A stretch of DNA of 32,000 nt. It comes from an uncultured Erysipelotrichaceae bacterium. Lineage in GTDB: Bacteria; Bacillota_I; Bacilli_A; Erysipelotrichales; Erysipelotrichaceae. The stretch spans positions 1,260,001-1,292,000 of the forward strand of contig OW818668.1 of assembly GCA_942493105.1 (NCBI GenBank), given 5' to 3'. Below, one piece after another: positions 1,660 through 19,143 of this stretch. Under the pieces are notes generated by a model. That model was not told where the DNA came from. It searched no databases and saw only the letters and a program-made list of their open reading frames with translations. The position numbers and the translations under genes are program-made. Position 1 is the stretch's first letter. Every line of letters begins with the position of its first letter.

Positions 1660-2325
1660 TTATGCCTTAATAGCATCCTTTAAGAGATCAATATTCTTTT
1701 TGAAGTTATTTTGATCATAGAATATACCAGCAGATCCTAAAACAAAACCCGTTGCACCACACTTCACAAGTTGAGCAATGTTTGAAGGCGAAATTGAACC
1801 ATCAACCATAATATCGATTTTTTTCTGATAGTTAGATAATATGTTATACAGACGTTGAGTCTTTTCGATTGAAGCATGAATAAATGCTTGACCAGCAAAA
1901 CCAGGATTAACAGACATGATCATGACCACATCTAGATCTTGAATTAATTCTTCAGCACATGAAATGGGGGTTGATGGATTTAAAACCAAGCCAACTCTTT
2001 TGCCCATACTTTTGATTTGATTGATCGTACGGTGCAAATGTGTACATGTCTCAGGATGGATCATTATTATTGATACTTTATCTAAATTGAAAAGATGAAG
2101 AATATTGCTAGGCTCATTAACCATTAAATGAATTTCCAAAGGAAGTGGACTAATTTTATTTAGTGCAATAATATCCATCAACCCCAAAGTAATATTAGGA
2201 ACATAGTTTCCATCCATAATATCAATATGAAATGAAGTGCTTCCAACTTTAGTTAGTTCATCTACTTGTTCTTGAAGATGTAAAATATCGATAAGCATCA
2301 AAGAAGGTGACCAATTTATTTGCAT
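1660..2325 (-). CDS. Ribulose-phosphate 3-epimerase family protein, AlsE-like (putative hexulose-6-phosphate 3-epimerase)
   Basis: 221 aa. SPSLMLIDIL...FHIDIMDGNYVPNITLG...VNPGFAGQAF...VDGSIS are the canonical Rpe/AlsE TIM-barrel motifs. The start overlaps the rpiB stop by 10 nt. Confidence 0.8.
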   Translation of the reverse strand: MQINWSPSLMLIDILHLQEQVDELTKVGSTSFHIDIMDGNYVPNITLGLMDIIALNKISPLPLEIHLMVNEPSNILHLFNLDKVSIIMIHPETCTHLHRTINQIKSMGKRVGLVLNPSTPISCAEELIQDLDVVMIMSVNPGFAGQAFIHASIEKTQRLYNILSNYQKKIDIMVDGSISPSNIAQLVKCGATGFVLGSAGIFYDQNNFKKNIDLLKDAIKA

Positions 2326-2765
2326 TGCTTTTTCTCAATTTCAGAGATTAACTGAACTCTCGATTCATGTCTTCCGCCTTCAAATGTGCTATCTAACCAA
2401 CTACATATAATCATCCTAGCCAATTCTTTACCTACAACTCTGGATCCTAAAGCTAAAATGTTCGTATTGTTGTGTTGTCTTGACAGCATCGCAGAATATG
2501 GCTCCGAACAAACGACAGCCCTAATGCCATTGACCTTATTGGCGGCAATAGATATTCCAACGCCTGTTCCACAGCATACTATTCCCAAGTCAGCACTTCC
2601 TTGAGTAACTGCATTAGCAACTTTTTCTCCAAAAACTGGATAATCGCACCTTAAAGTATCATAGGTTCCAAAATCTAGAATCTCAATACCGCGTTTATTC
2701 AACTCATCGATAACTGTTGATTTCAATTCAATCCCAACATGATCACATCCGATGGCGATTTTCAT
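2316..2765 (-). CDS. rpiB: Ribose-5-phosphate isomerase B / sugar-phosphate isomerase (RpiB/LacA/LacB family)
   Basis: 149 aa. MKIAIGCDHVG...GIVCCGTGVGISIAANKVNGIRAV...SRQHNNTNILALGSRV is the canonical RpiB signature, including the CGTG catalytic Cys. Confidence 0.85.
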   Translation of the reverse strand: MKIAIGCDHVGIELKSTVIDELNKRGIEILDFGTYDTLRCDYPVFGEKVANAVTQGSADLGIVCCGTGVGISIAANKVNGIRAVVCSEPYSAMLSRQHNNTNILALGSRVVGKELARMIICSWLDSTFEGGRHESRVQLISEIEKKQCK

Positions 2766-2888
2766 ATTTCCCCTTAAAATTTTTGCACACTGTATTACAG
2801 CTGATATTTGTCATATTTAGAAAAGTTTAGCTTGATTTCTAATTAGAGTTGTTTGATGATTGGTCAGCATTTTGTTGGTTCCAAATAT

Positions 2889-3605
2889 TTATCTAATTCT
2901 TACGTATTTGGCTTGGTATTTCTGAGAATTCAAGTATTGTTCGGTATACTCCATGACATCTCCATTTTTTAAGTATGTCAGTAAGTTGACTTTCATGATG
3001 GGGGTATACTTGTCGATCTTAAACACTTTCGCAAGTTCAATGGTTGGTAAGATGGGGATCACGGTATGTGTCGCTATATCGATCTTTAAGCCTTTGACGA
3101 CTTCCACATAATTATATTTGCTTTTCTCCAGATAACTGATACTGAGATCAGGGAACTTTCTGATTGACATGTAGGTTTTTTCATACTGAACGACTTCCTC
3201 ATCGCAGTAACAGGCTCTTTCAAAGTAATACACCATTTCTCGCTCATTGATGTTTAAGGCATGGGCAATTTGAGGTGTGGCTTCCTCTACAGTAAATACC
3301 TTGACTTCATAATGAGGGGTCTTGCCTTGAGCTCGCATTTCTTCTGAGAAGGACAGGGTTTCTATGGTCTTATGGGCTATTGAAGAAGGTCTTACGATCG
3401 ATCCTAAGCCTGCTGTACGCACCAAAAGGTTACGGGCAACTAAACCATCGGTTGCCTTTCTAATCGTTACTCTGGAGACCTTATAGATCTTGGTGAGCTC
3501 TAGTTCTGTGGGGATCATTTCATCTGGTTTATAGAAACCAGAGGTGATCTTATCGATCAAATCATTTTCGATGGATTTATACAAAGACATGTTTTTCTTA
3601 CTCAT
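2889..3605 (-). CDS. GntR family (HutC/UTRA subfamily) transcriptional regulator
   Basis: 238 aa. N-terminal winged HTH (LYKSIENDLIDKITSGFYKPDEMIPTELELTKIYKVSRVTIRKATDGLV) plus a C-terminal UTRA-like effector domain. Divergent from the PTS operon. Confidence 0.85.
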   Translation of the reverse strand: MSKKNMSLYKSIENDLIDKITSGFYKPDEMIPTELELTKIYKVSRVTIRKATDGLVARNLLVRTAGLGSIVRPSSIAHKTIETLSFSEEMRAQGKTPHYEVKVFTVEEATPQIAHALNINEREMVYYFERACYCDEEVVQYEKTYMSIRKFPDLSISYLEKSKYNYVEVVKGLKIDIATHTVIPILPTIELAKVFKIDKYTPIMKVNLLTYLKNGDVMEYTEQYLNSQKYQAKYVRIR

Positions 3606-3698
3606 AATGTTTACCCTATAAATGTATTATATATCATAACAATTAATACATCAAGTAAATATAATTAAATAATATATCATAATATATAACTAAATGTA

Positions 3699-3727
3699 TT
3701 TACAAATGCCCGAGATAATGCTAAACT
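3699..3727 (+). promoter_or_regulatory. Candidate sigma-A promoter of the PTS/sulfatase operon
   Basis: TTTACA (3699-3704), 17 nt, TAAACT (3722-3727), about 25 nt upstream of the IIA start. The -35 overlaps a repeated TAAATGTATT motif. Confidence 0.35.
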
Positions 3728-3752
3728 TTGGTCGAAATAACGGAGAACAACA

Positions 3753-4154
3753 ATGATCGGAGTCGCCATTTGTACGCATGCTGGTTTTGCGCAAGGACTA
3801 AAAGAAGCCTGTGAGATGATCTCAGGTGAACAAGAAAATTTTGTTGCTTTAGGATTTACATTCCATGATGAATTGATAGACTATAGTGAAAAATTAAAAT
3901 TTTTAACTAAGGACTTTGACGAAGGCTGTATCTATGTCTGCGACATGATCAACGCGAGTCCTTATAACGCTGCTTTGATGTGTATATATGAAACAAAAAA
4001 CTGGGTACTTAGCGGTGCCTGTTTACCGATGGTCATAGAAATACTGATTGCGCGTTCTTTAGAAGGCGCAACGGTAGAATCGATCGTCAATATGGTTAAA
4101 GGCTCATATCATGATTACTTGGGATTCACATCATCAGATGATGTTTTTAAGTAG
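3753..4154 (+). CDS. PTS mannose/fructose/sorbose family IIA component
   Basis: 133 aa. MIGVAICTHAGFAQGL places the phospho-His at the canonical N-terminal position of EIIA-Man. Confidence 0.8.
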   Translation: MIGVAICTHAGFAQGLKEACEMISGEQENFVALGFTFHDELIDYSEKLKFLTKDFDEGCIYVCDMINASPYNAALMCIYETKNWVLSGACLPMVIEILIARSLEGATVESIVNMVKGSYHDYLGFTSSDDVFK

Positions 4155-4171
4155 AAGAAAGGAGGAAAACA

Positions 4172-4663
4172 ATGCTGAAACTTGTTAGATGCGACGATCG
4201 TTTGATTCATGGACAATGTATGACCTACATTATCAATGAATATGCGATCAGGAATATTATTGTGGTCGATGAATTTACCGCCACCAATGCGATCATCAAA
4301 AAGATCTTTACGTCGGCGATACCGAAGTCGATCAGTGCTTCAGTTCATACCTTAGTAGACTCAACAGAAGCCATCCTAGCGGCTTTAAGCGATGACAGTT
4401 CAAGTTTGTTGTTGATGAAAAAACCACAGACCTATGTCTCGCTAAGAACCATGATTCCAAATTTGCCTGACAGTTTAAACATTGGTCCTCAAACCATTCG
4501 TAATGGCTGCAAGATTTGTACGCCATACGCTGCTTTGAATCAGGAAGAGGCCGATGCATGTACGACTTTAGAAAAGCAAGGGGTTAGAGTCTATTTCAAC
4601 TCCATCGGTAGTGGTTCAAAAACGGTAGAATGGAATAGTGTTGCCAAGCTGTTCAACACTTAA
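4172..4663 (+). CDS. PTS mannose/fructose/sorbose family IIB component
   Basis: 163 aa. LVRCDDRLIHGQ is the EIIB-Man active-site His motif. Strong RBS AAAGGAGG. Confidence 0.85.
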   Translation: MLKLVRCDDRLIHGQCMTYIINEYAIRNIIVVDEFTATNAIIKKIFTSAIPKSISASVHTLVDSTEAILAALSDDSSSLLLMKKPQTYVSLRTMIPNLPDSLNIGPQTIRNGCKICTPYAALNQEEADACTTLEKQGVRVYFNSIGSGSKTVEWNSVAKLFNT

Positions 4664-4715
4664 TGCTTAAAAGATTTGGATGATGTGATCTTAAATCTTG
4701 AAAGGAGAAAACAAG

Positions 4716-5468
4716 ATGGAGTTATGGCAAGCATTTCTAATTGCTCTATTAGGGTATTCAGCTGCTAACTGGTCCATTCCTTTAATGGGAAATATGGGCG
4801 GTTGGTGGACCATCGGGCGTCCTTTGGTCGCCGGATTATTGATTGGGCTTATTTTAGGGGATATTAAACAAGGGGTCATCTTAGGGGCCGCAATTCAAGC
4901 ATTGTATATCGGTTTGGTTACTGTTGGTGGAGTTATTCCAGCCGACATCAACTTTGCTGCTTATATTGGTATTCCGTTGGCGTTGATGTCCAATGCCTCC
5001 GTTGAAACCGCTCTTGCAATCGCTGTTCCACTAAGTATGTTAGGCGTATTGGTTTTCAATTTGACCCGTGTCGTGAATGTTTATTGGGTTCACTTACAGG
5101 AAAGATTGATCAATGACGGTAAATTGGATTTAGCAGCAGGGGTACCAATTTTCGGTAATCTGTTCCAGTTCATTTTCCGTTTCTTCCCAATTTTCTTTGC
5201 TTGTTTATTAGGCGTAGACGTTATGACGAAATTCATTGCTTCGATTCCTAAGGAATTATCAGCCATCATCACGATTTTCGGAGCTATGTTGCCGATCATT
5301 GGTTTTACCCTCATCTTAAAGATGATCGTCAAAAGCAATCTGCAATTTGTCTTCTACGTATTCGGTTTCGTTTTGTTTACCGTATTTAAAGTTGGAGTTA
5401 TTCCAATCGTTGTCGTTGCAGCTGTCTTTGCTTACCTTGACTACAAGTTTGGAGGTCAGACCACATGA
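4716..5468 (+). CDS. PTS mannose/fructose/sorbose family IIC component
   Basis: Polytopic membrane protein of the EIIC-Man type (MELWQAFLIALLGY...). I chose ATG 4716 because it follows RBS AAAGGAG. The track start 4698 is a TTG inside that RBS. Confidence 0.85.
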   Translation: MELWQAFLIALLGYSAANWSIPLMGNMGGWWTIGRPLVAGLLIGLILGDIKQGVILGAAIQALYIGLVTVGGVIPADINFAAYIGIPLALMSNASVETALAIAVPLSMLGVLVFNLTRVVNVYWVHLQERLINDGKLDLAAGVPIFGNLFQFIFRFFPIFFACLLGVDVMTKFIASIPKELSAIITIFGAMLPIIGFTLILKMIVKSNLQFVFYVFGFVLFTVFKVGVIPIVVVAAVFAYLDYKFGGQTT

Positions 5469-6295
5469 GTAACGCACCAGTCCGTTTATTAAATAAAAAA
5501 GATGTTCGTAAAGCTTGGTTAAACTGGATGTGGTTCTTCTTGTCGACCCAAAATATGGAACGTATGCAGGCTCCTGCCGTCATCCGTACCATGTGGACCG
5601 CAAAAGACAAATTGTATCCAAACAATAAAGAAGCTCAAAAAGAATTAATGCAGAGACATACCCCATTCTTCAATACTGAACCTGTTTGGGGCGGTATGAT
5701 CATTGGGATCACCTTGGGTATGGAAGAAGAAAGAGCCATGGGCGGAGACGTTCCAGATGAACTCATCAGCAGCATCAAAACTGCATTAATGGGTCCGTTT
5801 GCTGGTTTATTTGATTCCTTGTTCCAAGCGACTTTAGTTCCTATCCTGTTGTCTATTGGGATGGGGATGTCTGCTGAATCCGGCTCTGTTGCTGGACCAT
5901 TATTCTATGTCGTGTCATTCTGGGCGATCGTTCCGACCATTTCTTGGTTCTTGTTCTATAACGGATACAAGGCTGGGATCTCCGGAGCTCAAATCATCCT
6001 TGAAAGCAATATTAAAGAACGCGTCATCAGTGCTGCCAACATCATCGGTTTGGTCGTCATCGGTGCCGTTACCGCATCCATCGCCAACATCAATACCGGT
6101 TTGAAGTTCAAATATCAGACCTTGGTCGTTGATTTGAATGCCATTTTAACTGGGATCCAGCCTAAGATCTTGGTCTTGCTAATGGTCTTCTTGACTTATT
6201 ACCTGATGGTCAAGAGAAAAGTAACCATCAACCAGATTTTCTTACTGTATTTCTTATTGGCAGTCGTTGGTTATTTCACAAAAATCTTAGCTTAA
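5465..6295 (+). CDS. PTS mannose/fructose/sorbose family IID component
   Basis: 276 aa. LNKKDVRKAWLNWMWFFLSTQNMERMQAPAVIRTM is typical of EIID-AGA/Man. ATGA overlap with the IIC stop. Confidence 0.85.
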   Translation: MSNAPVRLLNKKDVRKAWLNWMWFFLSTQNMERMQAPAVIRTMWTAKDKLYPNNKEAQKELMQRHTPFFNTEPVWGGMIIGITLGMEEERAMGGDVPDELISSIKTALMGPFAGLFDSLFQATLVPILLSIGMGMSAESGSVAGPLFYVVSFWAIVPTISWFLFYNGYKAGISGAQIILESNIKERVISAANIIGLVVIGAVTASIANINTGLKFKYQTLVVDLNAILTGIQPKILVLLMVFLTYYLMVKRKVTINQIFLLYFLLAVVGYFTKILA

Positions 6296-6305
6296 TTGAT
6301 TTATG

Positions 6306-6335
6306 AGGTATGCCTAGCTTGCTCTAGGCATACCT
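6306..6335 (+). other. Perfect 12-bp stem / 6-nt loop hairpin between the PTS IID gene and the downstream enzyme genes
   Basis: AGGTATGCCTAG (6306-6317), cttgct, CTAGGCATACCT (6324-6335), followed only by TTCTC (no real T-run). RBS AAGGAG and ATG 6353 follow. Confidence 0.6.
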
Positions 6336-6352
6336 TTCTCACAAGGAGACTT

Positions 6353-6844
6353 ATGATCCTTACGTATCAATGTAACATCGATGATATCATCGATTATCAT
6401 TTATATTTGGCTGTTCATGATTCCTCGATGCAGAAGCGTTTGCTGCTGTTTATCGCGGGGTTTTGGGCGACCATTGCTTTAGTTATCGTCGTTTACTTTC
6501 GCACGACACAGGCTTTGCTGATCGGTTTGATCGTGGCTGTGCTTTATGCTTTGATCTTACCTAAAGTCTATTGGGCCATCGTCTTAAAACGCATTACGTT
6601 TATAACAAAAAAAGTATCGGTCCAATATCCACAGGTAACACTCACTTTATCTCGAAACATCATTCTAAGCGAAAACAATAAAACGACCACCATCTCTTTT
6701 ACTGATCTGACTCATATTGGTTGGACCAAAAATAGTTGTTTCTTATTTTATATCGTAGATGAACATAAGCAAGTCGCCATCATTCCTTTAAGGGCTGTAT
6801 CTGATCTTGAAGGGTTTGCGGCTTATTTATCACAAGGAGCCTAA
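6353..6844 (+). CDS. YcxB-like small membrane protein (function unknown)
   Basis: Two central TM helices (LLLFIAGFWATIALVIVVYF / ALLIGLIVAVLYALIL) and a C-terminal ...CFLFYIVDEHKQVAIIPLRAV pattern typical of YcxB-like proteins. Start moved to ATG 6353 (RBS AAGGAG). The track start 6296 reads through the hairpin. Confidence 0.5.
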   Translation: MILTYQCNIDDIIDYHLYLAVHDSSMQKRLLLFIAGFWATIALVIVVYFRTTQALLIGLIVAVLYALILPKVYWAIVLKRITFITKKVSVQYPQVTLTLSRNIILSENNKTTTISFTDLTHIGWTKNSCFLFYIVDEHKQVAIIPLRAVSDLEGFAAYLSQGA

Positions 6845-6846
6845 CT

Positions 6847-7568
6847 ATGAAAACAAAAGCTGAAATTTTAGCTTCTCTACAAGGCGGTTTAATCGCTTCC
6901 TGTCAGGTCAAAAAAGATGACCCACAATATATAGAAGGATTGATTCCGGCCTTAGCCAAAGGGGCGATATGGGGCGGAGCTGTTGGATTAAGGATCGATC
7001 AGCCTGAAACATCAAAGCGGTCAGAGCTGTTACGGATTTGCCTATTATTGGTTTATGGAAAATACATCGCAAAGATACAGAAGTCTTTATGACGCCCAAT
7101 ATGGATGCGGTGAGACAAGTCATTGAAGCCGGAGCCGATATCGTTGCGATCGATGGGACTCAAAGAATGATCGATGGGGAAGCTGCTTTTGAGATCATTC
7201 CTAAAATCAAAAAAGCCTATCCTAATGTCTTGATTTTTGCGGATGTTAGAGATGATGATGATGCGGTCGCAGCTTTAGAAAAAGGTGCTGATATCGTAGC
7301 CCCGACTTTCTATCGTTTTTCGCCCAATGCGAAATCATCCGATCTACCAGACTGGGAAATGTTTTCCAGGATGTGTGATCGCTGTAAAGGCAAAGGTGCC
7401 GTGTTTATGGAAGGCAAACTTTGGACCCCGGACGATTGTATCCGCGCTTTACATTATGGAGCCCATGCGGTCGTTGTTGGGACAGTGTTGACTCGTTCAC
7501 ACATTACCACCCAAAGATTTGTTGATCACATTAAAGGTTTCAAAGAAAAAAGAAGTCTTTTCTATTAA
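6847..7568 (+). pseudogene. nanE: N-acetylmannosamine-6-phosphate 2-epimerase (NanE), frame disrupted by an apparent 1-nt deletion in an A-run at 7007-7009
   Basis: Track ORFs 6847-7092 and 7038-7568 are the two halves of one NanE. LQGGLIASCQVKKDDP...GGAVGLRIDQPE continues in the +1 frame as NIKAVRAVTDLPIIGLWK...IVAIDGT...VVVGTVLTR. Reading CCTGAAAACATC instead of CCTGAAACATC restores a ~240-aa NanE. Confidence 0.85.
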
Positions 7569-7583
7569 AGAAAGGGGATACTC

Positions 7584-9131
7584 ATGAACCCGAAAACTCA
7601 CATTTATTGGACAGATATGCACAGTAATCTTCATCATGAAAAAATGATGGAGCTTGAGAAATGGTTTAAACACATCCAACAATTGATGGATTTTTGGCCG
7701 ATTGCCTATTATCCTTTTACGATGAAAGCTTTACCGATCGGGATCAGTGTTGAAGATCTGCATGATGAGGATAAGTTCAAAGCCGATTGGGAAACCATAA
7801 GAGCTTTTACGAAGAAAGCCAATGAAGAAGGTTTCCCTATGTTTATGGGTTATGAGTGGCAAGGTTCTGGTGAAGACGGAGATCATAATGTGTTTTTTAA
7901 AGACAATGATCAAGACATCGTTTTTCCTTTAAGATATACCCAACTCAGAGATCATTTTAAAGATAAAGATGTGATTGCGATACCACATCATTTGGCTTAT
8001 CAACCCTTAAATAGAGGTAAGAATTGGGACACTCACGATGAACAGTTTTCACCTTTCGTAGAAACGTATTCATCTCATGGCAGCAGTGAAAATGATACAG
8101 ATTCACTGCCTATGGTTCGCCATATCCACATGGGTCCTCGAACAGGAGTAACAACCGTCGTCAAAGGTCTTCAAAATGGTCATCGTTTTGGGATCATTGC
8201 CTCTGGAGACAATCATAGCGTACCTGGGGTGTATGAATATGGAACCATGGCGTGTATCGCAACCGAGTGTACCAAAGAAGCGCTGTGGGATGCGATGAAA
8301 CAGAGACGAGTCTATGGGGTCTCTAGAGATCGCATCAAGCTTGATTTTAAGCTGGATGAAGTGTTGATGGGTGGCGAGATAAAAGCTTCCCCAAATAGTC
8401 AATTGAAGGTTCAAATCGAAGGCAGTGATCGTCTTGATCGCGTTGAGATCATCGATGGGAGTCGAGTCATCGATGTGGTAAATATGTTGAGTCCACATAG
8501 AAATGATTTACCTAATGAAAACATACGCATTAAATTCAAGATCGAATTTGGATGGGGACCAGATCGAAGGATCTTTCCTGAGATTGCCTCTAAAGTATGG
8601 AATGGATCTTTCAAATCGAGTGGAAAAATAAAGTCGATTGAAAAATGTTGGAATAATTTTGGCCAGAAACTAGAAAATGTCGATGATCATCATTTTGATT
8701 TCACGATCACGTCTTATAAAAATGCGGCCAACGATAAATGGATGGCGACTTCAGCCATGACGACAGAAGGTTTCATCATCGAACTACAGACTCAAATCGA
8801 TGCTTGTTTTGATGTGATCGTCGATGGGAAAACTTATACCTTCAAAGTCTCAGATATTTTAGATTCTTCCCACATCATAGAAATGAGTGATGAGGTCAAA
8901 GCTTTGATCTTTGAAAGATATGGATTTAGTGAATACTATCGTCAAGATACGTGGTGGCATCATGCCTATAAATTTAAAATTGGACAAGCCTGTCGATCTG
9001 ATGAATATGAAATGACGATCGATAAACAGATCGATACCACATCTTTAAACAGTGTCAGACTTAGAGTTTGGGAAAACAATGGCTCTGTTGCCTGGAGCAG
9101 TCCGATTTTCATCAAGAAGGAGTCCTTATGA
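7584..9131 (+). CDS. DUF3604/PHP-like putative metal-dependent hydrolase (function unknown)
   Basis: 515 aa with no signal peptide. Ordered His/Asp/Glu motifs WTDMHSNLHH, FMGYEWQG..DGDHNVFF, AIPHHLAY, YSSHGSSE and ASGDNHS resemble the DUF3604/PHP metal-ligand pattern. The C-terminal ~220 aa are unassigned. Confidence 0.45.
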   Translation: MNPKTHIYWTDMHSNLHHEKMMELEKWFKHIQQLMDFWPIAYYPFTMKALPIGISVEDLHDEDKFKADWETIRAFTKKANEEGFPMFMGYEWQGSGEDGDHNVFFKDNDQDIVFPLRYTQLRDHFKDKDVIAIPHHLAYQPLNRGKNWDTHDEQFSPFVETYSSHGSSENDTDSLPMVRHIHMGPRTGVTTVVKGLQNGHRFGIIASGDNHSVPGVYEYGTMACIATECTKEALWDAMKQRRVYGVSRDRIKLDFKLDEVLMGGEIKASPNSQLKVQIEGSDRLDRVEIIDGSRVIDVVNMLSPHRNDLPNENIRIKFKIEFGWGPDRRIFPEIASKVWNGSFKSSGKIKSIEKCWNNFGQKLENVDDHHFDFTITSYKNAANDKWMATSAMTTEGFIIELQTQIDACFDVIVDGKTYTFKVSDILDSSHIIEMSDEVKALIFERYGFSEYYRQDTWWHHAYKFKIGQACRSDEYEMTIDKQIDTTSLNSVRLRVWENNGSVAWSSPIFIKKESL

Positions 9132-10492
9132 ACATTGTCTACATTCACACCCATGATATGGGTAAATTCATCAGTCCTTATGGTTATGCGACACCAACAA
9201 AAAACATCATGGCTTTTGCGAAAGAAGCCACTGTTTTTACCAACAGTTTCTGTGTTGCCCCAACCTGTTCACCCAGTCGAGCTGCTTTATTGACAGGTAC
9301 TTATCCTCATCAAAACGGTATGCTTGGCTTAGCACAACGCGGTTTTAATTTAAACGATTACAGTCAACACTTGGTTCAATTCTTGTCTAGAGCAGGCTAT
9401 ACGACGGTATTGAGCGGGATTCAGCATGAGGCAGGGTGGTATTTAGAAAACAGTGGTGCTGATAAAGTAGGTTATCAGATCAATTTGACAGCCGATGCTC
9501 AACCATATGAGCGAGAAGACCTTCATCTGTGGGATCATACCAACGCTAAAAAAGCAGCTAATTGGATCAAACAAGCCGATCCTAAGAAACCCTTCTTTTT
9601 ATCCTATGGGATGCATTCTACGCATCGTCCTTTCCCGCTGGATATCGATCCTTCCATCGATAAAAACTATCTGCAGCCGGCTAGTCCCATCACCAACAAT
9701 GCGATCACACGTCATGATCATGCGCAATTATTGACCTCACTGAAATATGCAGATGAAGGCTTTGCGATGATCATCGATGAACTTAAAGCCAAAGGCATTT
9801 ATGATGAGTCGATCATTTTGTTTACGACCGATCATGGTTTACCTTTACCGTTCCATAAATGTTATCTTAATGATTTTGGGATCGCAGTCAGTATGATCAT
9901 GCGTGTCCCATTTGCCAGTTCTAATGGTCAAGTCATTGACACCATGGTTTCTCATATCGATGTATTCCCAACCTTATGTGATCTCTTGAACTTAGAAAAA
10001 CCAATTACATTGGAAGGCAAATCATTTGAAGCTTTATTTAAGGGCGGAAACTTTGAGAATGAGCTGATCTTTGCGGAAATCAATTTTCATACTTCCTATG
10101 AACCTTCACGTTGTGTACGCTCAAAACGCTATAAATACATCAAATTCTTTGATGCGGATCATTTAAAAACCAATCCTTCTAATGTGGATGTTTCTTTGAC
10201 AAGAGAATTCTATATTGAAAACGGATGGCTAGATCTGGATAAAGATAAAGAAGGTTTATATGATCTGTTCTATGATCCAAGTGAAAAGAATAATCTGATC
10301 GAAGATCCTAAAGTCGCCAATATTGCCCAAAAGATGCGTGAAGCACTTTTGGATTTCCAAATCAAAACCAAGGATCCTTTATTAAATGGTCCAATTGAAG
10401 TCAAAAAGACTTATAAAGTCAATAAACAAGCCTGTATCGATCCTTCAAGCAAAGATCCAAAGGACTATGATCCTAGAGGAGTAACCCCATGA
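9128..10492 (+). CDS. Cys-type (formylglycine-dependent) sulfatase, no signal peptide (predicted cytoplasmic)
   Basis: CVAPTCSPSRAALLTGTYPHQNGM is the C-x-P-x-R FGly motif. DHG (TTDHGLPL) and other S1 sulfatase blocks are present. ATG 9128 follows RBS AAGAAGGAG and makes an ATGA overlap with the upstream stop. The protein begins MNIVYIHTHDMGK, directly in the catalytic core. Confidence 0.85.
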   Translation: MNIVYIHTHDMGKFISPYGYATPTKNIMAFAKEATVFTNSFCVAPTCSPSRAALLTGTYPHQNGMLGLAQRGFNLNDYSQHLVQFLSRAGYTTVLSGIQHEAGWYLENSGADKVGYQINLTADAQPYEREDLHLWDHTNAKKAANWIKQADPKKPFFLSYGMHSTHRPFPLDIDPSIDKNYLQPASPITNNAITRHDHAQLLTSLKYADEGFAMIIDELKAKGIYDESIILFTTDHGLPLPFHKCYLNDFGIAVSMIMRVPFASSNGQVIDTMVSHIDVFPTLCDLLNLEKPITLEGKSFEALFKGGNFENELIFAEINFHTSYEPSRCVRSKRYKYIKFFDADHLKTNPSNVDVSLTREFYIENGWLDLDKDKEGLYDLFYDPSEKNNLIEDPKVANIAQKMREALLDFQIKTKDPLLNGPIEVKKTYKVNKQACIDPSSKDPKDYDPRGVTP

Positions 10493-11928
10493 ACTATCCC
10501 AATCAAACCGAACTTTTAAAAGCATATGCGACTTTTACCCAAGATATTTTTAAAAAAGTAAAAGAAACCCAATTTGAAACGATTGCGAAGCTAGGAACGC
10601 TCATCTTTAAGCAATTGGCCACTGGTCATTCATTTTGGATGTATGGCAGCGGACATTCGCATATCTTGTGTGAAGAAATGATTGATAAGAAGGGTGGCTA
10701 TTCGTTTGTTAAGACGACTTGTTTAGAAGAAGTCTTAGGCAATCCATCAAAATGCGGTATCTTAGAGCGTGAAGCAGAGTTTGCTTATGCGATCTTACCT
10801 TTCTTTGAAGCTAAGGCAGGGGATATTGTTTATTTGATCTCCAATTCTGGAACCAATGGGGTCATCGTAGAATTGGCCAAAACTTTTAAAGAAAGAGGTT
10901 GTGTCGTAGTTGCCCACTGTAATATGACTCAATCTAAGAAAGTATCACCACGTCATCCTTCAGGCAAGAAATTATATGACTTTGCGGATTTCATCATCGA
11001 TAACTGCGGTAAAGATGGGGATGCGGCCTTTGAAGTCGTTCCTGGACAAAATATGGGGGCAACTTCCAATATGGTGGGATCCTTTATCTTACAAGCCCTT
11101 AATGTGGTCTTTACGACAATGCTTGCTGCCTATGAATCTGATGAAGCGCATTTACTTAACGGAAGTTTAAAAGATAAAGTGATCAATCAACCAGTTGATT
11201 TGAAACTGATCATGGATCAGTTGGATCGTTATGTTGAAACCTTCAATGAACACTTTACCCAGATCACCAAAACTCAATTTCCATCCATCATCAAGGCATC
11301 TAATTTGATTGGTGATGTTATTTTAGCCAATCGCTCCAGTTATATGTTTGGGATGGGCCATGATCATTCTTTGGTTGAAGAGATCCATGCCAGGGCAGGG
11401 ACCATCATGGTCAATAAATCCTTGGTCATGAATTGCCCAGAACTGATGATTTTTAAGGGTCTACAAAAATCCAATGCCTATGCGAATTGTCCGCATTATG
11501 CCGATGCGATTTTAGCTCAAATCGATCCTCAAGAAAATGAAGGATTCCTTTTGGTCTCGCAATCCTTTAGTGAACCGGCTTTGATCAGAATGTTAGATTT
11601 ATTAAAAGAAAAGAAATGTAAAGTCGTGGTCATGGTCAATCAGAACTTGGCTAAAACACAAAGCACCAAGGCTTATCTTAATGCAGATGTCGTATTGGAT
11701 AATTGTTGCGATGAAAGCGATGCTGCTTTATGGATCAGTGATAATGCTACCGCGGCCTTGTCTACACCTTTAAGTGCCTTTGTCTTACAGAGCTATGTCT
11801 TATCCATGGGTCATTACGTCACTGAAAAAGGGATGATTTTACCAGCTCGAATCAGTGTCAATACAGATCGTGGACTTAACTTTACAGAAAACTTGAATCG
11901 TGATCATTTTAAGAAGAGCATCGTCTAA
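10489..11928 (+). CDS. Tandem (duplicated) SIS-domain protein of the UPF0309 / SIS_2 type
   Basis: 479 aa. Half 1 has WMYGSGHSHILCEEM, LISNSGTNG and SPRHPSGKKLYDFADFIIDNCG. Half 2 repeats the architecture (YMFGMGHDHSLVEEI, LVSQSFSEP, ADVVLDNCCDESDAA) with degenerate motifs. ATGA overlap with the sulfatase stop. Confidence 0.7.
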   Translation: MNYPNQTELLKAYATFTQDIFKKVKETQFETIAKLGTLIFKQLATGHSFWMYGSGHSHILCEEMIDKKGGYSFVKTTCLEEVLGNPSKCGILEREAEFAYAILPFFEAKAGDIVYLISNSGTNGVIVELAKTFKERGCVVVAHCNMTQSKKVSPRHPSGKKLYDFADFIIDNCGKDGDAAFEVVPGQNMGATSNMVGSFILQALNVVFTTMLAAYESDEAHLLNGSLKDKVINQPVDLKLIMDQLDRYVETFNEHFTQITKTQFPSIIKASNLIGDVILANRSSYMFGMGHDHSLVEEIHARAGTIMVNKSLVMNCPELMIFKGLQKSNAYANCPHYADAILAQIDPQENEGFLLVSQSFSEPALIRMLDLLKEKKCKVVVMVNQNLAKTQSTKAYLNADVVLDNCCDESDAALWISDNATAALSTPLSAFVLQSYVLSMGHYVTEKGMILPARISVNTDRGLNFTENLNRDHFKKSIV

Positions 11929-11960
11929 TTAATTTTCACGTTTAAATGTTGGGGGTCAGT

Positions 11961-12743
11961 ATGATCGCAATAGAAGCCTTGATTGTTTTTGTGGCGACCT
12001 TGATTGGAGCCATTACGGGTTTGGGTGGTGGTGTCATCATCAAACCCTTTTTTGAATTAGCAGGGTTACATGATACTCAAACGATTGGAGTCTTATCTGC
12101 CTTTGCGGTCTTTACCATGTCGATTGTCTCTTTAGTCAAGAATAAACAACATTTTATAAGCCTTCAAAAAAACATCATTCTGTTTTTAGCGAGCGGATCT
12201 TTCTTAGGAGGTCTGTTGGGCAATACCATTTTTGGATGGATCAAAACCATGACTCCCGATGAGAATCTTCTTAAATTATCTCAGTCTATGGTATTACTGC
12301 TGGTTTTGATCATCATTGTATTAGCGACGATTTTTAAATCTCGGATTAAGACATATCGGGTTAAAAGTGCTTGGGTAATCTTTAGTGCAGGTTTGTTGCT
12401 GGGTTGTATCTCGGTATTTTTAGGGATCGGAGGTGGTCCTTTAAACATCATCTGCTTAAGTGTTCTGTTTTCCTTTGGGATGAAAGAATCGGTTATCTAT
12501 TCGATCAGTACTGTTTTCTTTGCGCAATTATCTAAACTTACTCAAGTTTATATTGTGAATCAGTTTAAGGAATATGATCTTGGATTGATTGTGTGGATTT
12601 GTCTTTTTGCACTGTTAGGGGGTTATGTTGGATCAAAGGTCCACCTTAAGATATCCAGTGCTCATATTCAAAAGATCTACTTACTGACCATGATTTTCTT
12701 GATTTTTCTGACTTTATTTAATATATCGCGCTGCTTTATATAG
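11961..12743 (+). CDS. TauE/SafE family anion (sulfite/sulfate-type) exporter
   Basis: Polytopic protein with the two glycine-rich half-repeats GLGGGVIIKP and GIGGGPLNI typical of TauE/SafE. ATG 11961 is preferred (GGGGG RBS). ATG 11946 is also possible. Confidence 0.75.
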   Translation: MIAIEALIVFVATLIGAITGLGGGVIIKPFFELAGLHDTQTIGVLSAFAVFTMSIVSLVKNKQHFISLQKNIILFLASGSFLGGLLGNTIFGWIKTMTPDENLLKLSQSMVLLLVLIIIVLATIFKSRIKTYRVKSAWVIFSAGLLLGCISVFLGIGGGPLNIICLSVLFSFGMKESVIYSISTVFFAQLSKLTQVYIVNQFKEYDLGLIVWICLFALLGGYVGSKVHLKISSAHIQKIYLLTMIFLIFLTLFNISRCFI

Positions 12744-12859
12744 TAATAAGGTAACCATTTTAATAATAGTAGGAATCTTTGATTTCATAGAATGGTTGTA
12801 AGGCATGATTATTCATGGGTTTGATTTCATGAACATGTGGATACATGTGAAATAAATGC

Positions 12860-12888
12860 TTAACAAGTTCATGTGTTATGGGTATAAT
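12860..12888 (+). promoter_or_regulatory. Candidate sigma-A promoter of the lipoprotein gene
   Basis: TTAACA (12860-12865), 17 nt, TATAAT (12883-12888), 24 nt upstream of ATG 12913. Confidence 0.5.
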
Positions 12889-12912
12889 GGAAGCAATAAA
12901 CAAGGGGAAATT

Positions 12913-13539
12913 ATGAGAAAATTACTGATCAGTTTAGTGTTGGGAAGTTTAATCCTGGCTGGTTTTAGTGCATGTGCCTCTAAACCTAAACCAGAAGCTG
13001 CAGTCAAAGTATTTCTAGAAGCTTTTAAGAAGGGTGATGAGACCTTCGATTATGACAAGATGTTTGATTCAGAAGTGACCTTCTTGGATAATGTCCCACT
13101 GACAACTGATGAAGAAACACCGATTGAAATCCAAACCAGAGCTGAAGAACTCTTATTGGGTTTTGAATATGAAGTCGTTAAAGCAGTCGTCGCTAAAGAC
13201 GGAAATACAGCCCTTGTAACGGTAAAGTTTACGACAGTTAATATGGGTGATATCTTCTTTAAATTCTTTACCACATACATCACTAAGGCCATGGAAGCAC
13301 TATTTAATGGTGCCACTGAAGCAGAAGTAACAGTGATGGCAACTGAGCTTTTCTTAGAAGCATCAAAAGATGCGAAGAAAGATAAGTTAAGCACTGTAGA
13401 TATTCAGATGGTCTATGTTGATAAAGTTTGGTTGATCAAAGGCGGAGAAACCAATAAAGTCATGTTTGATGCCTTATTGGGTGGTATGATCACCGTCATT
13501 GAAGATCTGCAGGAAATGCAAAACCCTGAAACAAATTAA
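12913..13539 (+). CDS. Lipoprotein (DUF4878-like small secreted domain)
   Basis: MRKLLISLVLGSLILAGFSAC is a signal peptide plus lipobox Cys. PEAAVKVFLEAFKKGD is typical of DUF4878-like lipoproteins. The track start 12856 lies inside the predicted promoter, so ATG 12913 (RBS AAGGGGAAA) is used. Confidence 0.65.
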   Translation: MRKLLISLVLGSLILAGFSACASKPKPEAAVKVFLEAFKKGDETFDYDKMFDSEVTFLDNVPLTTDEETPIEIQTRAEELLLGFEYEVVKAVVAKDGNTALVTVKFTTVNMGDIFFKFFTTYITKAMEALFNGATEAEVTVMATELFLEASKDAKKDKLSTVDIQMVYVDKVWLIKGGETNKVMFDALLGGMITVIEDLQEMQNPETN

Positions 13540-14623: not shown

Positions 14624-14651
14624 AAAAAGATAAACAAACGTTTATCTTTTT
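14624..14651. terminator. Bidirectional terminator between convergent genes
   Basis: AAAAA-GATAAAC-aaac-GTTTATC-TTTTT (stem 14629-14635 / 14640-14646). A/T runs on both sides. Abuts the LCP stop codon. Confidence 0.7.
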
Positions 14652-16113
14652 ATTGGGTCATCTGATAATTCATGATGTAGTCTATTCTTGCTTTCAGGTC
14701 CGCTAATAAATTTTGATTTGGCCAAGAAACATAAAGTAATCGTTTGCTTCCCATGCTATAGGTAGGTTGATAATCATGTGTTCCGATCAATGCGGAGGTA
14801 CTGATGTTCCATGTTTGATTGTTTTCAATTTGAGCACTGACCAGACTTAAGACATTGTCTGTCGTTAGATTGGTGTCGATGCTATTGGAAGCTGCATTGA
14901 TGATGCTTTCAACTTTAAGAAGGGTAGAGGCATCGGTAAGTTTCTTAATCAGACCTTTAATGACTTCTTGCTGATTCAATCCTCGTTGTTCATCTCCGCC
15001 CGGAAAATTATGGCGTTCACGGGAGAAGAAAAGGGCTTGTTCTGCACTCATGATGTTCATGCCTTCTATAAACGAATATGATTTTGCATAGGATACATAT
15101 TTTGAAGTCGTGAAGGCATATTTTGAATACACTTCGATCTTGCCTACCGCATCTATGATTTTCATGAAAGATGTGAAGTTGATTTTGACATAATAGTTTA
15201 CTTTGAGTCCAAATAGGTTTTCAACAGTCTTGACTGTACAATCGACTCCGTAAACACCAGCATGGGTCAGTTTATCCATCTCAAAGGTTCGACAGCCTAA
15301 AGGTGTATAGGTGTCTCGTGGGATACTGATGGTCAAGACATTATGGGTCTTGGGATTGACAATGACCAAGATGTTGACATCGCTTCTGGCTTTTTCTGAT
15401 AAAGCTCCAGGTGTTCTGGAATCAACGCCACTGATCAGCACGATGAATGGATTTTTTGCTGTATCGAGCTTCATCGAATCAATCAGTTTTATGGTGTCTT
15501 TTTCCAGAGTAAGGATGGTTGTGGTTTTACTTTCAAAGTCTGGATCTTCTTCGATGATATAAGGCATCATACTTTTATCCAAGACCATGACATCGATCTT
15601 TTTTGTATACAATAAATTGAGATTGGTTAGATCATCATCACTGACTTGCCAAGTATAGTTGTCAATTTCTTCATTAAGGTACTCCTTTAGATAATTGGTG
15701 ATCGTATCTTCGGTCTGTGCCGTTGCGCCTAAGATTGCATTTTGCATCTCTTTGACATTGGTGATGCCGCTGTCTTTCAATACGACAAATCCAATAATGT
15801 TGGTTTCAACTTTTTCTTGGTTGAGCAATCTTTCTAAAGTATATTGGCTGTAAAATAGTGCGCTTGAACTGATAAACAATAATACTGACAAAGTGATCAG
15901 GAGTCCTTTTTTGAAGTTCAATAAGAAACTCAGTCCGAGAAGCATAAGAAGAGCCAGCTTGATCGTTAAGCTAATCCAATTCGGTAAGATCTGATTATAA
16001 AGAAGCCCTAAGAAAAGCAGAGCTGTCATACTGAAATAGAGTATTTGATATGGTAATTTTTGTTGTTTAGGCTTGATCATATGGTGCTGTTCCCCATGAG
16101 TGTTATACATCAT
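14650..16113 (-). CDS. LytR-CpsA-Psr (LCP) family glycopolymer-peptidoglycan ligase
   Basis: 487 aa. N-terminal TM segments, then ARSDVNILVIVNPKTHNVLTISIPRDTY...LTHAGVYG...ALFFSRERH, the core LCP motifs. Confidence 0.85.
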   Translation of the reverse strand: MMYNTHGEQHHMIKPKQQKLPYQILYFSMTALLFLGLLYNQILPNWISLTIKLALLMLLGLSFLLNFKKGLLITLSVLLFISSSALFYSQYTLERLLNQEKVETNIIGFVVLKDSGITNVKEMQNAILGATAQTEDTITNYLKEYLNEEIDNYTWQVSDDDLTNLNLLYTKKIDVMVLDKSMMPYIIEEDPDFESKTTTILTLEKDTIKLIDSMKLDTAKNPFIVLISGVDSRTPGALSEKARSDVNILVIVNPKTHNVLTISIPRDTYTPLGCRTFEMDKLTHAGVYGVDCTVKTVENLFGLKVNYYVKINFTSFMKIIDAVGKIEVYSKYAFTTSKYVSYAKSYSFIEGMNIMSAEQALFFSRERHNFPGGDEQRGLNQQEVIKGLIKKLTDASTLLKVESIINAASNSIDTNLTTDNVLSLVSAQIENNQTWNISTSALIGTHDYQPTYSMGSKRLLYVSWPNQNLLADLKARIDYIMNYQMTQ

Positions 16114-16311: not shown

Positions 16312-16351
16312 ATGGACGTCAAATGTGATAATTTGATGAAATGAAGAGGGT

Positions 16352-19113: not shown

Positions 19114-19143
19114 AGCAATCTTTCATCTTGATGGAGATTTAAA

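Follow-up and report, generated by a model that had tools for sequence, protein, structure and literature searches.

Organization of the locus

A sulfatase without a signal peptide is encoded here within a PTS operon, which raises the question of what sugar such a transporter and such an enzyme could handle together. The PTS-linked cytoplasmic sugar sulfatase operon is a genuine gene cluster and is conserved widely. It forms a plus-strand run at 3753–12743 of the window (the whole 32 kb stretch of DNA that was analysed), in which the genes are tightly coupled and overlap by ATGA at three places (5465, 9128 and 10489); the order, gaps and overlaps described in an initial annotation match the ORF list. 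The Pfam matches along the run are EIIA-man, PTSIIB_sorb, EII-Sor, EIID-AGA, NanE, DUF3604, Sulfatase plus SGSH_C, SIS_2 twice, and TauE. The gene positions of that annotation stand, but its intact nanE and its ‘YcxB-like’ and ‘AlsE-like’ labels do not.

The first four genes encode a mannose-family PTS. EIIA (3753–4154; Pfam EIIA-man, 3.1e-16) carries, close to its N-terminus, a histidine within CTHAG that we take to be the phosphorylation site, by analogy with E. coli ManX. EIIB (4172–4663; mannose/sorbose family, PTSIIB_sorb, 1.8e-26) contains a DDRLIHGQ motif. EIIC (4698–5468; EII-Sor, 3.8e-58) has AgaW as its top NCBIfam model, at a score far under the cut-off, and EIID (5465–6295; EIID-AGA, 1.7e-76) overlaps it by ATGA, its own start lying on the EIIC stop. 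Downstream on the same strand are a small protein with hydrophobic segments (6296–6844), a frameshifted gene of the N-acetylmannosamine-6-P 2-epimerase family (nanE, 6847–7568), a DUF3604-like metallohydrolase (7584–9131), the Cys-type formylglycine (S1) sulfatase (9128–10492; Pfam Sulfatase, 1.7e-40; SGSH_C, 3.5e-18), a tandem UPF0309/SIS_2 protein (10489–11928; SIS_2 twice, NCBIfam PRK02947 in two stretches) and a TauE/SafE-family anion permease (11946–12743; Pfam TauE, 100.7 bits against a cut-off of 32.6). The small protein had been called ‘YcxB-like’, a label left unsupported because neither Pfam nor NCBIfam gave a match even at E=10. In 7 of the 80 related loci considered below, each of Erysipelotrichales type, a homologue is likewise flanked by EIID and NanE.

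Divergent from the operon, on the minus strand, are a GntR/HutC-type regulator with a winged helix and a UTRA effector domain (2889–3605; Pfam GntR and UTRA), RpiB, ribose-5-phosphate isomerase B (2316–2765; Pfam LacAB_rpiB, 9.6e-57; NCBIfam rpiB, 196.9 bits, cut-off 138.65), and a ribulose-phosphate 3-epimerase family protein (1660–2325; Pfam Ribul_P_3_epim, 1.3e-62). The first two members of this trio are as initially annotated, and the third belongs to the expected Pfam family, but the protein labelled ‘AlsE-like’ scores as an ordinary Rpe (NCBIfam rpe, 219.8 bits, equivalog cut-off 212.6). Allulose-6-P 3-epimerase was tried as its identity and rejected, at 196 bits against a cut-off of 271. 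The RpiB–epimerase pair occurs in only 1 of the 80 related loci (L009, the only other locus in which the epimerase adjoins the cluster), and its tie to the pathway is weak. The gntR–rpiB–rpe unit is closed by a terminator-like bidirectional hairpin at 1426–1445 (8-bp stem GGAACTCATCGATGAGTTCC, then T-runs on both strands), which also closes the upstream plus-strand gene.

Conservation of the module

We scanned 185,579 species genomes for relatives of the signal-peptide-less Cys-type (CSPSR) sulfatase and obtained 324 stretches; neighbours were counted in the best 80 loci of these (50–75% sulfatase identity). PTS genes lie beside the sulfatase in 75, and the remaining five are contigs that end next to the sulfatase; the linkage first noticed in this window is therefore conserved in every related locus that can be assessed. 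A lack of this linkage in related genomes, which the initial annotation had named as grounds for refutation, is not what these loci show. Fifty loci have a Man-type transporter and 27 a Glc-type one, and thus two unrelated superfamilies have been recruited to the same enzymes. Related loci range over Bacillota, Fusobacteriota, Synergistota and Actinomycetota, and annotated contexts in Fusobacterium varium, Neobacillus niacini, Holdemania, an Erysipelotrichaceae MAG and a Lachnospiraceae MAG concur.

The other partners recur at different frequencies: GntR/UTRA regulators in 69 of the 80 loci (38–71% identity), DUF3604-like proteins in 55 (36–66%), anSME and/or FGE maturases in 29, NanE in 28 (45–88%) and TauE homologues adjoining the sulfatase in 14 (25–49%). 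Judged by these orthologue identities and by the shared operator described below, the present locus represents one instance of an orthologous module that is widespread.

The sulfatase

The CSPSR motif occupies residues 47–51 of the sulfatase, and the conserved first strand begins at residue 2, too close to the N-terminus for a signal peptide to precede it. Both features are invariant in 80 of 80 relatives, extending to all of them what had been read from the window alone, and the enzyme appears to be cytoplasmic. Its best PDB matches are S1_8A (9bb9, 2.5e-29), S1_8B/C and human SGSH (4mhx), placing it nearest to subfamily S1_8, by matches at low identity. The S1_8 enzymes characterised so far act at position 2 (Gal-2S, Xyl-2S, GlcNS), and S1_8A is monosaccharide-specific; by this likeness the sulfate is probably carried on the C2 substituent, N- or O-linked.

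Weaker matches to the phosphonate monoester hydrolases 4upk and 4upi could mean that the ‘sulfatase’ uses its formylglycine to hydrolyse phosphoesters or phosphonate monoesters and that the cluster handles a phosphorylated sugar derivative; such hydrolases likewise need FGly maturation. We regard this as highly improbable, given that carbohydrate sulfatases of the S1_8/SGSH group match best, that the SGSH_C domain is present, that TauE-family permeases of sulfur oxyanions are co-located in some loci, and that many of the 80 loci hold a second S1 sulfatase.

The window contains no anSME or FGE maturase gene. Maturase genes are also missing from 51 of the 80 related loci, which indicates that the maturase is often encoded elsewhere.

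The partner enzymes

The initial annotation had taken nanE as intact, but it is read as two ORFs, 6847–7092 and 7038–7568, that are out of frame with each other. The break is a −1 frameshift in which one A has been lost from an A-run near 7005–7010; restoring it gives an intact NanE (PE[N]IKAVR), and each piece can be aligned over its whole length to intact NanE proteins. An intact orthologue scores above the NCBIfam PRK01130 cut-off and aligns at full length with solved NanE structures. Taken together with the lack of a maturase gene in the window, the frameshift could be read as a sign that the locus is a decaying, non-working remnant in this genome, the module being functional elsewhere. 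We consider this quite unlikely: the remaining genes are all intact and tightly coupled, and related loci commonly lack a maturase gene too. Moreover, the window holds a second frameshift, in an A7G5 run at ~30200, and breaks in such runs are typical homopolymer sequencing errors, which suggests an error of this kind in nanE rather than decay.

The tandem SIS protein matches 3cvj and NagS (9eol) in the PDB. Its N-terminal half keeps H53, E94, S119, S121 and D179 and has lost R64; its C-terminal half keeps R64 and N228, with E94 replaced by alanine. Between them the halves retain the residues essential in NagS, and the pattern is identical in six of six tandem homologues; on this residue pattern, the protein is a fused pseudo-heterodimer with one complete, putatively NagS-like, sugar-6-phosphate active site. 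The fusion is rare (5 of the 80 loci), and in this it differs from NagS, with which it shares the UPF0309 family. NagS, the sole characterised UPF0309 enzyme, binds and dehydrates GlcNAc-6P and ManNAc-6P; the Firmicute UPF0309 homologues that have been tested were inactive on GlcNAc-6P.

The DUF3604-like protein is predicted to be a cytoplasmic PHP-fold metallohydrolase with C-terminal beta-sandwich domains. Pfam DUF3604 matches it at 34 bits over a short segment (residues 220–255 only), and the NCBIfam CehA/McbA metallohydrolase domain reaches 42.7 bits, below the cut-off of 80. Its AlphaFold model (pLDDT 89.9, pTM 0.90) matches the PHP phosphoesterases 3e38 and 2anu by Foldseek, and His, Asp and Glu residues are invariant among its relatives. 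More distant relatives are found without any sulfatase, which indicates that the enzyme is not tied to desulfation.

Proposed pathway and substrate

We favour, as the probable though not assured reading of these sequence comparisons, that the module serves to catabolise a sulfated monosaccharide by PTS import and intracellular desulfation; a 2-N-substituted gluco- or manno-hexosamine is the likeliest candidate. Import followed by desulfation, the core of the initial interpretation, fits the cytoplasmic sulfatase, the nearby FGly maturases of related loci and TauE; the parts assigned to RpiB and ‘AlsE’ and the option of a disaccharide fare less well. No glycosidase, lyase or sugar kinase family recurs in the 80 neighbourhoods, and the want of a recurrent glycosidase or lyase makes a disaccharide unlikely and the substrate probably a monosaccharide.

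From the known behaviour of its family, the Man-family PTS would import the sulfo-sugar and phosphorylate its free 6-OH. The sulfatase, activated first by a maturase whose gene lies at another place in the genome, would strip the sulfate in the cytoplasm, probably from the C2 substituent; we infer, as the initial annotation held, that it acts on the 6-phosphate form. A second hydrolysis by the DUF3604-like enzyme would follow, which we guess to be N-deacylation or the cleavage of a second ester. Conversion of the resulting sugar toward GlcNAc-6-P or GlcN-6-P, and from there into central metabolism, would fall to NanE and the NagS-like tandem SIS protein, and TauE is proposed to export the released sulfate. 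The NanE and NagS families abstract the C2 proton of N-acetylhexosamine-6-phosphates, and the NanE family match, with the NagS-essential residues of the tandem SIS protein, makes an amino-sugar skeleton the most likely one. Our best guess at the substrate is N-sulfoglucosamine, then 3-O- or 4-O-sulfated GlcNAc or ManNAc, then a hexose 2-sulfate. N-sulfoglucosamine would leave NanE without an obvious role.

The same module might instead present its sulfatase with an unphosphorylated or O6-sulfated sugar, the PTS acting without 6-phosphorylation or phosphorylation following desulfation. Of the free sulfated amino sugars known from host mucus, GlcNAc-6-sulfate is the most common, and the genes of sulfatase relatives at 30–40% identity (Streptomyces, Deinococcus, haloarchaea) have ABC sugar importers, ROK regulators and FGE as neighbours. 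ABC importers do not phosphorylate their substrate, which implies unphosphorylated substrates for these relatives and means that phosphorylation is not generally required across the wider sulfatase clade. The model for such a route is Bifidobacterium breve UCC2003, in which, in a review's account of the study by Egan et al. (2016), free GlcNAc-6-sulfate is taken up and then desulfated intracellularly by an FGly sulfatase, the bacterium depending on cross-feeding from other mucin degraders. The clusters described there resemble the present proposal in importing a sulfated amino sugar ahead of an intracellular FGly sulfatase, but their substrate bears its sulfate at O6, which is incompatible with the 6-phosphorylation proposed here. 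We know of no PTS involved in the B. breve clusters. PTS transport is coupled to phosphorylation, and the known Man- and Glc-family systems phosphorylate a primary hydroxyl, a group that a sulfate at O6 would block; no recurrent kinase is available for a desulfated free sugar, and the nearest characterised sulfatases cut at position 2, not 6. Such a route is accordingly unlikely, and we retain desulfation of a PTS-imported 6-phosphate as the preferred reading.

Comparison with known systems

The initial annotation knew of no characterised PTS-coupled desulfation route, and none was found in the literature searched, but there is some precedent, both in known or proposed non-PTS intracellular desulfation and in an accessory region of Streptococcus pneumoniae, SPH1922–1930 (Hungary 19A-6; studied in WCH206), published in 2012. 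Like the present cluster, that island unites a PTS, a Cys-type sulfatase, a sulfatase-modifying radical-SAM enzyme (anSME) and a TauE-family protein, and its TIM-barrel protein has an HHpred match to NanE. However, its PTS is of the Lac/cellobiose family and its regulator is ROK, in place of Man-family and GntR, and its description mentions neither a DUF3604-like nor a SIS protein. By gene content it is similar, as an independent parallel. The island is regulated and plays a part in both colonisation and virulence; with 4-methylumbelliferyl sulfate as substrate, activity was not detected.

In the glycosaminoglycan cluster of Streptobacillus moniliformis (Smon0120–0127), the Smon0126 sulfatase is predicted to be cytoplasmic and proposed to act after import, as we propose here, but that cluster takes up unsaturated disaccharides through an ABC importer and also has lyases and a GH88 hydrolase; no such gene recurs in the present module. 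The S1_8 sulfatases (Pseudoalteromonas S1_8A/B/C, human SGSH and Pedobacter heparinus sulfamidase), the closest solved structures, share the FGly mechanism and SGSH_C, but their location is the periplasm or the lysosome and their substrates are unphosphorylated sugars, and the match to the cytoplasmic enzyme is ~1e-29 at low identity. The MurP/MurQ pathway also begins with PTS import, there of a GlcNAc derivative with an extra substituent, and a SIS-domain enzyme then acts on the 6-phosphate via C2-proton chemistry. The present proposal shares PTS import of a substituted amino sugar and a SIS enzyme, whereas the substituent would here be removed by a hydrolytic FGly sulfatase.

Regulator and operator

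The candidate control region of the operon (3692–3727, plus strand) contains an operator-like site, AAATGTATTTACAAAT, at 3692–3707, with two mismatches to the palindrome given below. In a promoter scan it overlaps a promoter-like −35 box, TTTACA (3699–3704), followed by a −10 box, TAAACT (3722–3727). The GntR/UTRA protein would be a repressor on an operator overlapping the −35 box, and a sugar-phosphate of the pathway would release it. The operator-like motif AATGTAT[T/G]ACATT is shared by Man- and Glc-type loci. In 19 of 49 divergent intergenic regions AATGT-N4-ACATT is matched exactly, and 39 of the 80 loci, again of both types, have it when one mismatch is allowed.

Gene organization of the locus

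The ORF list and Pfam scans bear out the operon layout of the initial annotation, with its short gaps and its ATGA overlaps at 5465, 9128 and 10489. On the minus strand lie a ribulose-phosphate 3-epimerase family gene (1660–2325), rpiB (2316–2765) and a GntR regulator with a UTRA domain (2889–3605). The plus strand carries EIIA-man (3753–4154), EIIB (PTSIIB_sorb; 4172–4663), EIIC (EII-Sor; 4698–5468), EIID (EIID-AGA; 5465–6295), a 182-aa ORF (6296–6844), nanE in two frames (6847–7568), a DUF3604-like protein (7584–9131), the sulfatase (9128–10492), a double SIS_2 protein (10489–11928) and TauE (11946–12743). The four PTS components exceed their Pfam gathering scores, and all lie far below the cut-offs of the NCBIfam equivalogs for Man, Aga, Gam and Sor specificity (for example, 111 versus 300 bits for AgaW). 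No sulfatase maturase, either anSME or FGE, is found within the 32-kb window.

Two names had to be withdrawn. The 182-aa ORF, previously called YcxB-like, matches no family profile of Pfam or NCBIfam even at E = 10; in Pfam this holds for both possible starts and for the homologue in the related locus L006. The epimerase previously called AlsE-like falls below the NCBIfam equivalog cut-off for allulose-6-P 3-epimerase (196.2 versus 271 bits) and above that for rpe (219.8 versus 212.6 bits).

Linkage of the sulfatase to a PTS across genomes

We used an alignment of 17 sulfatase sequences to scan 185,579 species genomes, each species being represented by one genome. Relatives of the sulfatase are encoded in 324 stretches, the closest of them in Erysipelotrichales MAGs, in line with a source organism from this order. 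ORFs were called in the best 80 of these 324 loci, whose sulfatases are 50–75% identical to the window protein, and were searched with the window proteins and with reference proteins from the first annotated contigs; partners were counted up to 9 kb from the sulfatase.

The initial annotation had staked its proposal, PTS import of a sulfated sugar followed by cytoplasmic desulfation, on the sulfatase and the PTS staying together in related genomes. They do: a PTS membrane component is present at 75 of the 80 best loci, and at the other five (L009, L015, L026, L052 and L075) the contig stops 0.3–2.8 kb upstream of the sulfatase. The central inference thus survives the test that its proponent had set. 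The PTS is of the Man family (EIIC/EIID) in 50 of the 80 loci and of the Glc family (EIICB) in 27, and a GntR regulator accompanies 69. Among the other partners, the DUF3604-like protein recurs in 55 of 80, NanE in 28, a maturase in 29 (anSME in 21, FGE in 12) and TauE in 14, and the 182-aa ORF and the tandem SIS protein in seven and five, respectively. Clustering of the remaining neighbour ORFs in these 80 loci gives no additional recurrent enzyme family, be it a glycosidase, lyase, kinase, NagA or NagB; a glycosaminoglycan disaccharide locus of the streptococcal type, with its lyase, GH88 and other glycosidases, is rejected because these enzymes do not recur.

The rpiB–rpe pair probably shares one transcript with gntR, extending to a terminator at 1426–1445, and is not counted as core because it lies beside the cluster in just one other locus. 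An allose-type route through RpiB and AlsE was likewise discarded: by score the epimerase is an Rpe, and only one of the 80 loci has the pair.

The carriers include Erysipelotrichia, Clostridia, Bacilli, Enterococcus, Fusobacterium, a Synergistaceae MAG and Thermophilibacter. Annotated contigs with homologues of the sulfatase or the DUF3604-like protein illustrate the range of gene orders. An Erysipelotrichaceae MAG has the order of the window and encodes an uninterrupted NanE of 239 aa and a double SIS protein of 479 aa. In Holdemania, GntR is followed by EIIC, EIID, DUF3604-like protein and sulfatase, and in Fusobacterium varium by Glc-family EIICB, NanE, DUF3604-like protein and sulfatase. 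A Lachnospiraceae MAG has GntR, then sulfatase, EIIA, EIIC, EIID, a second sulfatase, DUF3604-like protein and EIIB, and Neobacillus niacini has TauE, LysR, GntR, EIICB, sulfatase, EIIA, NanE, a radical-SAM/SPASM maturase and FGE.

A copy of the module in the order GntR, EIICB, NanE, DUF3604-like protein and sulfatase lies on the 159-kb plasmid pSB021A of Fusobacterium sp. SB021 (L024, 41952–63301), which suggests that it is capable of horizontal movement. FGE is an oxygen-dependent maturase, and the Bacilli carriers include aerobic halophiles that possess it. All twelve FGE loci (Bacillaceae and Salinicoccus; L017, L018, L046, L049, L053, L068, L070, L071, L077, L079, L083 and L086) are devoid of the DUF3604-like gene that is common in the loci of anaerobes, a pattern that may reflect phylogeny or function. 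Many Lachnospiraceae, Hungatella and Oscillospiraceae loci (L007, L016, L022, L034–L037, L044, L050–L051, L055–L056, L059, L063–L065, L067, L072–L073 and others) encode a second cytoplasmic S1 sulfatase of ~490 aa, whose nearest structures are those of choline-sulfatase and whose score is far below the choline-sulfatase family cut-off. These loci have no NanE, and the two features together hint at a variant for a doubly sulfated or different substrate.

A cytoplasmic sulfatase nearest to S1_8 structures

Most work on carbohydrate sulfatases has dealt with secreted or periplasmic enzymes from Bacteroidota and marine bacteria. The window sulfatase matches Pfam PF00884 (139.6 bits, cut-off 25 bits) and also contains an SGSH_C domain. 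Its formylglycine motif (C/S-x-P-x-R), CSPSR at residues 47–51, shows no variation across the 17 aligned sequences or in any of the 80 best relatives. The conserved first strand starts at residue 2, and the alignment to the secreted S1_8A starts at residue 35 of that enzyme, leaving no room for a signal peptide. The same holds for the 80 best loci, where a start codon immediately precedes the conserved strand; longer N-terminal “extensions” in some of them are products of the longest-ORF rule and contain no signal-peptide-like sequence. The claim that the sulfatase has no signal peptide is thereby upheld for the window protein and its relatives alike.

The closest solved structures in the PDB are Pseudoalteromonas S1_8A (2.5e-29), S1_8B, S1_8C and human SGSH. 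All activities described to date for S1_8 enzymes concern position 2 (Gal-2-sulfate, Xyl-2-sulfate and N-sulfoglucosamine), and S1_8A acts on a monosaccharide only (paper describing S1_8A/B/C). With E-values of just ~1e-29 and other subfamilies scoring close behind, the S1_8 likeness is a lead to regiochemistry and not a subfamily assignment. More distant relatives (30–40% identity), on Streptomyces and Deinococcus plasmids, share their operons with genes for an ABC sugar importer, a ROK regulator and FGE. The broader clade is thus one of transporter-linked cytoplasmic sulfatases, of which the PTS-coupled branch is that of Bacillota and Fusobacteriota.

A shared regulator and operator

Judged by identity to the window’s proteins, the partners are orthologous across loci (GntR 38–71%, NanE 45–88%, DUF3604-like protein 36–66% and TauE 25–49%). 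The divergent spacers between gntR and the operon have in common a palindrome, AATGT-N4-ACATT, which is exact in 19 of 49; allowing up to one mismatch, sites in the non-coding parts of the cluster are found in 39 of the 80 best loci, in Man-type and Glc-type loci alike. The usual form, AATGTATTGACATT, holds a TTGACA –35 box, and the operator-like site of the window, AAATGTATTTACAAAT at 3692–3707, overlaps a promoter-like TTTACA-17-TAAACT. Within the window alone the matches are not above chance (32 at up to three mismatches versus 52 expected), so the evidence for the operator is its conservation across loci. That one regulator and operator serve two PTS superfamilies argues that the effector, and by extension the substrate, is identical or very similar in Man-type and Glc-type loci.

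A locus labelled “MAG: Bacteroides thetaiotaomicron” (L072) has the Man-PTS/two-sulfatase order of Hungatella, with operator sites positioned as in Hungatella hathewayi (L055), and probably comes from Clostridia through mis-binning.

NanE and the tandem SIS protein

A gene of the NanE family is present, as annotated, but it is not intact: a frameshift splits it into 6847–7092 and 7038–7568. The translations of 6847–7011 and 7011–7568 jointly cover an intact NanE and are one residue short at the junction (PE[N]IKAVR), as expected from the loss of one A from an A-run. A second gene of the window, glycosyltransferase-like (29695–30835), is split into overlapping ORFs in different frames (29695–30246 and 30170–30835), with the break near 30195–30215 at a homopolymer stretch (an A7G5 run near 30200). 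Given these two sites, a homopolymer sequencing error is as likely as real decay, and the two frameshifts together suggest homopolymer errors in the assembly. In L006 the orthologue is intact; it reaches 202.9 bits (NCBIfam cut-off 189 bits) and aligns over its full length with the solved NanE enzymes of Streptococcus, Fusobacterium, Clostridium and Staphylococcus.

The double SIS protein gives two matches to NCBIfam PRK02947 and, in the PDB, matches 3cvj and NagS (SCO4393), the latter weakly (6.6e-18). Among UPF0309 enzymes NagS alone has been characterised: it dehydrates GlcNAc-6P and binds both this compound and ManNAc-6P; H53, R64, E94 and D179 are essential, and R64 and N228 come from the other subunit of the dimer (NagS paper). 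When these positions are mapped onto the fusion, the N-terminal half keeps H53, E94, S119, S121 and D179 and has Lys, Gln or Leu at position 64, and the C-terminal half keeps R64 and N228 and has Ala at position 94 and Asp at position 54, in six of six tandem homologues. All residues essential in NagS are therefore present, divided between the two halves, and the fusion is predicted to be a pseudo-heterodimer with a single complete active site. The Firmicute UPF0309 proteins assayed were inactive on GlcNAc-6P, and homologues of ~30% identity outside Streptomycetaceae have no GlcNAc-6P dehydratase activity (NagS paper); the substrate of the tandem protein is probably a modified relative of GlcNAc-6P. 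We note that the operon thus contains two enzymes from families that abstract the C2 proton of N-acyl-hexosamine-6-phosphates, and this family membership points to an amino-sugar skeleton of the substrate.

A putative PHP-type hydrolase with a partial DUF3604 match

The Pfam DUF3604 match is not full-length, covering residues 220–255 only (36 residues; profile positions 379–414 of 591), and the match to the NCBIfam CehA/McbA metallohydrolase domain is sub-threshold. The homologues form a tight family of ~510 aa, in whose alignment H13, H17/H18, E91, H101, H135/H136, H165, D209 and H211 are invariant; we read these residues as candidate metal ligands. A profile search of the PDB with this alignment gives no meaningful match. 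In an AlphaFold model built with 42 sequences (pLDDT 89.9, pTM 0.90), the N-terminal domain matches two uncharacterised PHP phosphoesterases, 3e38 and 2anu, with a probability of 1.00 in structure comparison, and the C-terminal half consists of beta-sandwich domains. As in the sulfatase, the first conserved strand lies directly at the start, and the protein is read as cytoplasmic for this reason.

A distant homologue (31% identical; named “DUF3604 domain-containing protein” by PGAP) lies on a plasmid of Halomicrobium urmianum (L089), two genes away from a sulfatase with 39.5% identity to the window’s. Its neighbours there, as in Halorubrum rubrum (L093), are a TrmB regulator, an ABC sugar importer, several Gfo/Idh/MocA oxidoreductases and a Rid-family protein, which looks like a sugar-catabolic cluster in its own right. 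The DUF3604-like protein is not an obligate partner of the sulfatase: no sulfatase is near the more distant members in Halorubrum, a Bathyarchaeota MAG, a Gemmatimonadota MAG and one metagenome contig. The family is thus tied to sugar catabolism and not bound to desulfation, and from its Rid and oxidoreductase neighbours an action on the substituent of the amino sugar is plausible. Full-text literature searches for DUF3604 return one paper alone, which is unrelated.

It is unlikely, in our estimate, that the PHP metallohydrolase is a new FGly-independent desulfating or N-deprotecting enzyme that acts on sulfo-amino-sugar 6-phosphates in partnership with the S1_8-like sulfatase. If it were, this would be the first PTS-coupled pathway that cleaves sulfate esters or sulfamates off sugar phosphates, and would account for the scavenging of heparan- or mucin-derived sulfated monosaccharides by gut bacteria outside Bacteroidota. 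In Bacteroides thetaiotaomicron, BT4655 has been described as a putative GlcNS sulfamidase that does not depend on FGly and belongs to a “novel family”.

Proposed pathway and precedents

The gene content, the Cys-type sulfatase in the cytoplasm and its pairing, in nearly all loci, with a PTS and with an orthologous regulator and operator are features of the loci themselves. In the pathway we propose, the PTS substrate would carry a sulfate and be phosphorylated on entry, and the sulfatase would work on the phosphate form. The sulfate, probably located on the C2 substituent, would leave through TauE (PF01925; 100.7 bits versus a cut-off of 32.6 bits), and the PHP hydrolase might provide a second deprotection. 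The sulfoquinovose pathway is ruled out on chemistry: sulfoquinovose is a C6 sulfonate, which an S1 sulfatase does not cleave, and has no free 6-OH. We rank N-sulfoglucosamine first as the substrate, O-sulfated GlcNAc or ManNAc with a free 6-OH second and hexose 2-sulfate third; with N-sulfoglucosamine, NanE is unexplained. Mutants of B. thetaiotaomicron that lack BT4655 leave N-sulfoglucosamine in the medium, which shows that it can be present outside cells as a free sugar.

The nearest precedent is a pneumococcal accessory island (2012) that affects colonisation and virulence. It likewise combines a PTS, a NanE-like barrel, a sulfatase, a sulfatase-modifying enzyme and TauE, but has a ROK regulator and a Lac-type PTS; no activity on an aryl sulfate was seen, and the module may explain this island. 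Intracellular desulfation after non-PTS import is reported for GlcNAc-6-sulfate in Bifidobacterium breve and is proposed for Streptobacillus moniliformis; a characterised pathway that couples desulfation to a PTS did not turn up in full-text literature searches. The module is not categorically new, given the comparable islands already noted and the existing import-then-desulfate routes: it is a widespread variant, involving two families without assigned function. Its distribution suggests a different logic in many Bacillota, Fusobacterium and others, with PTS uptake of a free sulfated sugar and cytoplasmic desulfation, probably at the level of the sugar phosphate. Desulfation of sugar phosphates, if it occurs, would add a new class to the substrates of S1 sulfatases, and the pathway, if true, would define a cross-feeding niche on sulfated monosaccharides freed by primary glycan degraders. 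The loci also offer testable contexts for cytoplasmic DUF3604-like PHP hydrolases and non-Streptomyces UPF0309 SIS proteins, which have little or no functional assignment.

Flanking genes

Upstream of the locus lies a polysaccharide pyruvyl transferase gene (255–1418), separated from it by the terminator at 1426–1445, which is bidirectional. Directly downstream of TauE, an ORF (12856–13539) with a lipoprotein-like N-terminus (…LILAGFSAC…) and no Pfam family has a strong promoter-like site of its own at 12860–12888. The 14–32 kb part of the window is occupied by genes for cell-surface polysaccharide synthesis, which form a large cluster (14650–31426) with no link seen to the sulfatase operon. 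It encodes an LCP protein, an initiating sugar transferase, an O-antigen-ligase-like protein, a WecG/TagA transferase, a GT4 glycosyltransferase, a UDP-sugar dehydrogenase, two UDP-GlcNAc 2-epimerases and a Polysacc_synt_2 dehydratase, and the polymer made seems likely to contain ManNAc or ManNAcA.
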